A DNA stretch of 335 nucleotides from NCBI RefSeq assembly GCF_003334385.1, contig NZ_QOWN01000199.1. One strand, 5' to 3'. The translations under genes were made by a program, and so were the position numbers. The stretch is from Escherichia coli (lineage in GTDB: Bacteria > Pseudomonadota > Gammaproteobacteria > Enterobacterales > Enterobacteriaceae). A model generated the notes under the pieces. It ran no database searches, was not told where the DNA came from, and saw only the letters and a list, made by a program, of their open reading frames with translations. Shown here piece by piece: positions 1-335 of this stretch (position 1 is the first letter of the stretch; every line of letters starts with the position of its first letter).

Positions 1-335
1 ACCACCTGCTCAATCGTACAACTGAAATCACTGTACCTGGCGTTATCTGTGACGCTCCACTCCCGGCACACCACCCTCACCGTCCGGTTATGTTTCGGTG
101 GTCGCCACAAAAAGGCACGGTAACCACCATGCCACGATAAAAATTCATCCAGCCAGCGCCGGGTTGGTTCATCCGTCACCCGGAACACCGCCTGAAACGT
201 CTTCAGTCTGGCATTAAGTCCCGTCGGTCGGCGCTGTTCATAACCGTCACCAAACCGAACCCTCACCACCGACGGTTTCTCACTCACCTGCATCCCTTCA
301 CGCGGGACCAGATGCAGCGTTTTTATCTCAGCCAC
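1..335 (-). CDS. M: Lambda-like phage minor tail protein M (tail-tip assembly protein, gpM homologue). 3' end truncated by the window edge at position 1, with a stop expected a few nt beyond. Start probably GTG at 333-335 or just upstream of the window.
   Basis: The reverse-complement frame beginning at plus-strand 335 is open for 111 consecutive codons, while the other two minus frames stop within 13 nt and the plus frames stop at 23-25, 121-123 and 136-138. The translation aligns along its whole length with lambda gpM as I recall it (MKTFRWKVKPGMDVASVPSVRKVRFGDGYSQRAPAGLNANLKTY...HGGWKSFLWTPPYEWRQIKVTCAKW...EFEQVVN), with about 40-45% identity by eye and one small indel. Shared motifs are GM.V..PSV..VRFGDGY.QR.P.GLNA.LKT, FL..HGG...FLW.PP, C..WS and FS...EQV. 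The plus strand is C-rich, so the coding strand is G/purine-rich, as is typical of coding sequence. Confidence 0.93.
   Translation of the reverse strand, partial: MAEIKTLHLVPREGMQVSEKPSVVRVRFGDGYEQRRPTGLNARLKTFQAVFRVTDEPTRRWLDEFLSWHGGYRAFLWRPPKHNRTVRVVCREWSVTDNARYSDFSCTIEQV
323..335 (-). CDS. Extreme 3' terminus (last 2-4 codons plus stop) of the upstream tail gene, presumably the tape-measure protein (lambda H equivalent). Frame is ambiguous: the stop is either TAA at plus 323-325 or TGA at plus 328-330.
   Basis: Inference only. The gpM homology begins at codon 4 of the open frame, and lambda's ATG position is occupied by ATA here, so M probably starts at the GTG at 333-335. Both alternative minus-strand frames terminate immediately (g-TGG-CTG-AGA-TAA and gt-GGC-TGA), which is what a tightly packed upstream gene ending here would look like. 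In lambda, as I recall, the H stop overlaps the M start (ATGA). Too short to verify by composition or homology. Confidence 0.25.

Follow-up and report, generated by a model that had tools for sequence, protein, structure and literature searches.

A gpM-type distal tail protein gene in a common Escherichia coli prophage lineage and the conserved positions of its family

Introduction

The distal tail protein of phage lambda, gpM, forms a hexameric ring and has the tail-tube fold, i.e., a beta-sandwich with an inserted E-loop and a flanking helix (PMC10721106, PMC11101478). In the lambda tail, the sandwich stacks on gpV, and the E-loops, which adopt two conformations, stack on three HDI domains of gpL and three HDII domains of gpJ (PMC10721106, PMC11101478). 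The topology of gpM is identical to that of gpV-N, in which the E-loop is formed by a long insertion into the sandwich (PMC10721106), and the side-fibre collar of Ur-lambda contacts gpM at K2, W6, and R80 (PMC12617516). A tail-tube-like ring domain is also found in the solved proteins of T1 (9L9P chain H) and MF2 (25VF), in the Dit gp20 (23GD), and in T5 pb9, another siphophage distal tail protein, which has been reported with an OB-fold extension (PMC7291167).

The stretch of E. coli DNA analysed here, 335 nucleotides in its whole length and referred to below as the window, almost certainly encodes the gpM-type distal tail protein (Dit) of a lambdoid prophage, a protein that would form a hexameric adaptor ring and whose islands of identity with lambda gpM correspond to the constrained positions of the family. 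The value of this result beyond correct annotation is small, as gene, family, fold, and role are all established already, and the exact allele is found in hundreds of E. coli genome sequences as well as in deposited genomes of phages. What can be added is a table of conservation at each position of gpM, which separates family-wide constraints from residues common only to lambda, and the observation that two modules of this tail type meet at the M/L boundary, a finding that could be of use in designing chimeric tails.

The gene and its family

The window is read on its minus strand, where frame 0 is open across all 335 bases (335 to 1) and yields 111 codons with the translation VAEIKTLHLVPREGMQVSEKPSVVRVRFGDGYEQRRPTGLNARLKTFQAVFRVTDEPTRRWLDEFLSWHGGYRAFLWRPPKHNRTVRVVCREWSVTDNARYSDFSCTIEQV; the other reading frames contain many stops. 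Two plus-strand open reading frames (24 and 39 aa) were set aside, since both run antisense to a gene with good support and nothing speaks for them independently. The features at the ends of the gene are as follows.

1..335, minus strand: gpM-type distal tail protein CDS, codons 1-111 of 113 (open frame, Pfam PF05939, annotated 342-nt CDS)
333..335, minus strand: GTG start codon of the gpM gene (annotation and sequence of a 100%-identical genome)
328..335, minus strand: 8-nt overlap with the 3' end of the tape-measure gene (H homologue), including its TGA stop (annotation and sequence)

Records whose DNA is identical or nearly so annotate a 342-nt CDS, which ends seven bases past window position 1 (..EQVVN*), so that codons 112 and 113 (V, N) and the stop lie just outside the window. 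In the 100%-identical genome, GGAGGA is located 7 nt 5' of the GTG, also outside the window (upstream sequence gacggaggaatgctgaGTG). The codon aligned with the lambda ATG is ATA (Ile4), which places the start three codons upstream of that of lambda, and the overlap with the tape-measure gene is 8 nt in the window lineage vs. 4 nt in lambda. The same GTG start arrangement is present in phages 716R1 and 473R12; the 473R12 record carries a shorter CDS annotated from Met15, which is probably a mis-call.

The preliminary description had identified the gene as that of gpM, and this identification is borne out by profile, structure, and position. The protein belongs to Pfam PF05939 (Phage_min_tail, the lambda gpM family; E 6.5e-28, score 97.7; query 6-111 against 2-107 of the 108 model positions), matches phrog_14 'minor tail protein' (E 2.4e-35), and has as its best solved relative the lambda 'Tail tip protein M' (8IYK and four other entries; E 1.6e-24, or 3.6e-40 with the family profile), while its gene is located between the tape-measure gene and gpL. 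No NCBIfam model names the window protein. An AlphaFold2 model built on 129 sequences (mean pLDDT 88.3) superimposes on lambda gpM (8iyk_E) with a TM score of 0.81 and an rmsd of 2.4 A at 44% identity, and on the T1 tail-tip protein (9l9p_H) with a TM score of 0.72. As in the minimal Dit of the lambda type, the model consists of strands and one helix (56-69) and has no extra C-terminal domain, and the full protein is 113 aa long. The PF05939 signature (FGDGY.QR, G.N, F-L in the helix, G...F.W.PP, C..W) is present. In the annotation of an Stx1 phage and of the EC2 prophage of E. coli, the neighbouring genes follow the classical tail gene order of lambda; L, K, I, and J share 66-88% identity with their lambda counterparts. 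Family membership, fold, and gene order are thereby established for this locus, and no result speaks against the assignment.

Lambda gpM (8IYK, 8IYL, 8K35, 8XCG, 9E7M) is thus alike in Pfam family, fold, and gene position and similar in size (113 aa, 111 of them in the window, vs. 109 in lambda), and FGDGY.QR, GLNA.LKT, FL..HGG...FLW.PP, C..W, and EQVVN are shared identically. The differences include the low overall identity (44-45%), the upstream GTG start, and one additional residue before the helix. Lambda numbering equals the query position minus 3 up to aa 58 and minus 4 thereafter. In addition, the major tail protein that the window-lineage gpM partners belongs to phrog_158, whereas that of lambda belongs to phrog_41, and the two have no significant BLASTP similarity.

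Islands of identity with lambda gpM

Identity to lambda gpM amounts to 44.4% by tblastn (aa 4-111) and to 45.3% (48/106) in a global alignment; hence, the earlier by-eye estimate of differences at over half of the positions is correct. The same holds for the motif coordinates, which are exact for FGDGY (aa 28-32, positions 240-254) and HGGyraFLWrPP (aa 69-80, positions 96-131), while GLNAxLKT corresponds to aa 39-46 (198-221). Identity had also been proposed to concentrate in these three islands, and 20 of the 25 motif residues are indeed identical to lambda, compared with 27 of 82 elsewhere (hypergeometric P 3.6e-5, a post hoc value because the motifs had been picked by eye). Clustering is also apparent from the number of identity runs, which is 42 and thus lower than in shuffles (53.7; P 0.014), and the scattered C, W, and S identities near the C-terminus are found at C90, W93, and S94. 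The distribution along the protein is as follows.

aa 5-20: 5 of 16 residues identical to lambda
aa 21-46: 20 of 26
aa 47-61: 2 of 15
aa 62-80: 11 of 19
aa 81-111: 10 of 31

The islands are therefore real, but they are wider than first described: the N-terminal one extends over P21-S-V..VRFGDGY.QR.P.GLNA.LKT, and F65/L66 in the helix had been missed.

Conservation across the family

A search of 1.84 billion cluster representatives returned 1048 hits at E <=0.001. Conservation was calculated from 128 representatives of 100-125 aa with pairwise identity <=50%, whose identity to the query, its own cluster excepted, ranges from 27 to 60%; since they were drawn from the best 150 of the 1048 hits, they are biased towards the query. 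Within this set, the positions conserved at >=80% and the principal exceptions among the motif residues are the following (fraction of the top residue).

Conserved, FGDGY and after: F28.88, G29.95, D30.94, G31.96, Y32.97, Q34.88, R35.88
Conserved, aa 39-80: G39.97, N41.91, F65.98, G71.83, F75.98, W77.88, P80.80
Conserved, elsewhere: P21.89, C90.95, W93.95, V111.80
Just below: L66.78
Not family-wide, GLNA-LKT: A42.18, L44.45, K45.17, T46.27
Not family-wide, later positions: H69.52, G70.58, L76.33, P79.68, S94.36

Wherever conservation reaches 78%, the query carries the majority residue, with the exception of L at F7 and I at F108. Positions identical to lambda are also the more conserved ones (mean top-residue fraction 0.61 vs. 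0.33; Mann-Whitney P 7e-8). The suggestion that the motif positions are constrained throughout the family thus holds for most of those named, but not for A, L, K, and T of GLNA-LKT, H69, G70, and L76 (17-58%); as a list, the original motifs omit Q34, R35, F65, and L66 and over-count A, L, K, and T. As judged from this alignment, A42, L44, K45, T46, L76, H69, and G70 reflect shared ancestry with lambda and not family constraint. A42 and R43 vary even between 97%-identical relatives.

More distant solved homologues give the same picture. The FGDGY position reads FGDGY, YGGGY, FGNGY, and FGNGY in the four solved homologues, and the signatures are YGGGYSQ..DGLN..FLKRHGGYRSFLWTLP in MF2, FGNGYMQ..SGFN..F..SH..IKPFAWTPP in T1, and FGNGYGQ..DGPN..FLRGH.FVKPFVVTAP in gp20. 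These three proteins retain the pattern FG.GY.Q, G.N, F...H....F.W.P at <=17% identity to the query, but C90 is not kept in them and W93 is kept only in MF2; gp20 is also longer (199 aa), and its match is confined to its residues 87-192. The motif islands are thus the known signature of the gpM family. A literature search for 'FGDGY' found nothing relevant.

Placement of the conserved positions in the fold

In the AlphaFold2 model, strands 16-21 and 23-27 are followed by a turn at 28-32 (FGDGY), strand 33-37, a turn at 38-42 (P-T-G-L-N), strand 43-53, the helix at 56-69, and strands 75-77 (FLW), 86-97 (containing C90 and W93), and 102-110. The conserved positions fall into these elements as follows.

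198..272, minus strand: aa 22-46, probable E-loop, beta-hairpin region (FGDGYEQR at 231-254 and G39-L-N41 at 213-221; 77% lambda identity; conservation 88-97%)
240..254, minus strand: aa 28-32, FGDGY motif (88-97% conserved in the 128 representatives; kept or varied in the four solved homologues)
96..143, minus strand: aa 65-80, predicted FL helix end, HGG helix cap/turn, FLW strand, and PP turn (AlphaFold2 model)
57..68, minus strand: C90..W93 in the predicted long strand aa 86-97 (each 95% conserved in the representatives)

The lowest pLDDT values of the model (73-77) are found at aa 21-40. Lower confidence is what a hairpin that protrudes from the fold should show in a model of the monomer, and this, together with the topology of gpV-N, is why aa ~22-46 are placed in the E-loop; this putative range is taken from model secondary structure and pLDDT. 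If so, two of the three islands probably lie on the face of the protein that stacks on the gpL/gpJ hub ring. F65/L66, F75, W77, C90, and W93 are hydrophobic helix and strand positions that probably pack the sandwich core, whereas HGG and PP appear in the model as helix-cap and turn residues.

By homology to the solved tails of lambda, six copies of the protein would form a ring of tail-tube-fold subunits. The beta-sandwich face of this ring would stack on the major tail protein at its first ring, and its other face, with the extended loops, on a pseudo-hexameric ring to which gpL and gpJ contribute three hub domains each. Because the ring would contact both tube and hub, it would adapt the 3-fold tip to the 6-fold tube and close the initiator for tube polymerisation. 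Within such an assembly, FGDGY.QR and G.N would provide glycine- and aromatic-rich turns in the hub-facing extended loop; the division of conserved residues into core and interface is likewise inferred, at the level of secondary structure.

A hairpin within the coding sequence

One of the islands coincides with a potential nucleic acid structure.

104..133, minus strand: terminator-like hairpin and T-tract within the CDS (codons W68-W77, WHGGYRAFLW), with an 8-pair stem, a GGTT loop, and the tail TTTTTGTGG

It could therefore be asked whether conservation at 96-131 is imposed at the level of RNA or DNA, by an element on the coding strand, and not by the protein. The hairpin and T-tract at 133-104 are in favour of such an element, as is the number of such sites, two compared with 0.2 expected. 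A 45-nt stretch containing the hairpin folds at about -17 kcal/mol in the window and in the three same-lineage relatives that were folded (L001, L003, L004). However, the stem-loop is missing in 716R1, 473R12, and lambda, yet the peptide motif is retained; codons 73-94 differ synonymously among lineages; and Rfam gives no match at threshold, the permissive search returning only one sub-threshold chance hit (17.9 bits vs. a gathering score of 35.7). As the stem is not kept beyond the immediate lineage, the hairpin is rejected as the source of constraint, and this explanation is the least credible of those considered here. Conservation of the peptide remains the preferred reading, and the hairpin is probably an accident of codon choice. 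Scans of the window for promoters and for repeats found none.

Lineage and relatives

Of 5426 genomes, 1175 contain the window sequence, some of them in as many as 7 copies. At least nine complete E. coli chromosomes match its DNA at 100% identity, 634 records do so at >=99%, and Stx1a-converting phages in a phage collection at 99.4%. Stx1a_2054 and PPompW_EH1846 encode the protein with 100% identity. The closest described counterpart is the minor tail protein of Stx1a-converting and PPompW phages (e.g., BCI49087.1 in LC567819.1; WP_000807940.1 'phage tail protein'), with 100% protein identity over 111 residues and DNA identity of 98.8-100%; its gene likewise lies between the tape-measure gene and gpL, and there is no difference of substance. 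Phage YYZ-2008 (genus Pankowvirus, ACI32398.1) follows at 94.9% DNA identity, its protein differing by A42P, R43Q, and P57S. Across E. coli phage records, gpM types form a ladder of identity to the query: 94-100% for the window type, ~68% for vB_EcoS-716R1, 49% for 473R12, and 44% for the lambda clade.

The view that the gene represents a divergent lambdoid lineage is thus only half right: it is distinct from lambda (44-45%), but near-identical to gpMs of known phages (100% in Stx1a-converting phages and PPompW_EH1846). Exact protein and DNA matches in known phages and chromosomes mean that the lineage is well sampled and annotated, and not a newly seen divergent one. The window is an ordinary, already known gpM gene in a very common, already annotated prophage lineage, and its tail type is common to many Stx-converting and PPompW phages.

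Selection on the gene

Comparison with close relatives yields 13 synonymous and 3 replacement differences to YYZ-2008 and 16 synonymous and 7 replacement differences to Stx2c_04E077, which shows purifying selection on the gene. Residues 73-94, fully identical to those of the 68% relative 716R1 despite 12 synonymous codon changes, add to this evidence. Selection bears on the possibility that the prophage is defective and the gene within it a remnant in decay, with an identity pattern of no present function. Such a fate would not be unusual, since many E. coli prophages are defective and the 100% DNA matches are bacterial chromosomes. Against it are the intact frame with the Shine-Dalgarno-like GGAGGA 7 nt upstream of the start, the mainly synonymous nature of the differences, the complete tail module in the host genome, and the presence of the identical protein in deposited complete genomes of Stx1a-converting phages and of a 98.2%-identical one in vB_EcoS phage records. 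Decay is therefore highly improbable, and a gene maintained for its product is the better reading.

Residues and blocks specific to the lineage

The window lineage has L7, L9, and I108 (315-317, 309-311, and 12-14), whereas F (88%), W (55%), and F (89%) are typical of the family at these positions; F, W, and F are also found in the 68%-identical 716R1 and, at the aligned positions, in lambda gpM. The three residues may represent a coupled, lineage-specific change in the N- and C-terminal strands. Position 108 is occupied by a residue other than F in 4 of the 10 aligned sequences that have L7 (a group that includes the query and its cluster representative P0001) and in 7 of the 112 that have F7; covariation of positions 7 and 108 is retained as a note only, since the sample is too small and is not phylogenetically independent.

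A 22-residue block, RAFLWRPPKHNRTVRVVCREWS (codons 73-94, window 54-119), is identical to that of vB_EcoS-716R1 gpM, although the two proteins are 68% identical overall. Twelve codons within it differ synonymously, and intragenic recombination was rejected as its origin for that reason. Constraint on the block exceeds the family-wide pattern, which hints at a lineage-specific partner surface, and the block includes R84, which is aligned with the side-fibre contact R80 of lambda.

The tail module and the joint at the M/L boundary

In both the Stx1 phage and the EC2 prophage, the gene order is major tail protein, chaperones, tape measure, M, L, K, I, J, and then tail fibre; lom is located between J and the tail fibre in the Stx1 phage (L001) only. 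For the tail module of a prophage with the exact window sequence, the comparison with lambda gene by gene is as follows.

V: no significant BLASTP match; best PHROG 158 vs. 41, with weaker cross-matches; remotely related
H: 26% over the last 401 aa
M: 44-45%
L: 78%
K: 88%
I: 67%
J: 66%
Stf N-terminus: 59%

The change is also visible at the nucleotide level.

1..35, minus strand: 3' end of the gpM gene, where nucleotide identity to lambda steps up (sliding identity; L002 12300-12380)

Sliding identity to lambda is 0.33-0.64 within M and rises to 0.71-0.78 where M ends (its last ~40 nt) and L begins; values of 0.6-0.96 are then maintained through L and K. Because identity jumps there, the M/L boundary is considered a mosaic joint. 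Lambdoid genomes are mosaic, and with a true step in lambda identity at the 3' end of this very gene, it is reasonable to ask whether the islands themselves are recently exchanged patches of lambda-like DNA in a foreign gene and not the result of constraint. This explanation is largely refuted, since nucleotide identity to lambda is 0.58-0.64 at FGDGY/GLN and 0.49-0.53 at HGG..FLW, i.e., far under that of L and K, and the same residues are conserved in the 128 representatives and in the solved T1, MF2, and gp20 proteins. Exchange within the gene is thus very unlikely to have produced the islands, and constraint on the family remains the favoured reading of them.

As far as these comparisons can tell, gpM is the adaptor that joins a tube/tape-measure module unlike that of lambda to a tip module (L, K, I, and J) that is lambda-like. 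In this context, the uneven identity of gpM to lambda (77% in the putative hub-facing loop and ~35% in the rest) might reflect co-adaptation of the ring to two partners of different history, and the loss of three aromatic residues in this lineage (F7L, W9L, and F108I) might retune the side-fibre collar seat. Retuning of the seat is proposed because lambda W6, which is aligned with L9 of the query, contacts gpStf; the combined proposal is tentative and, on balance, somewhat doubtful.

Elsewhere in the module, the major tail protein (L002 7308-8024), whose tube domain falls into PHROG family 158 and not into that of lambda gpV (41), carries a C-terminal Ig-like domain that matches Hoc-like/decoration proteins (PDB, PHROGs), as does the C-terminal domain of lambda gpV.
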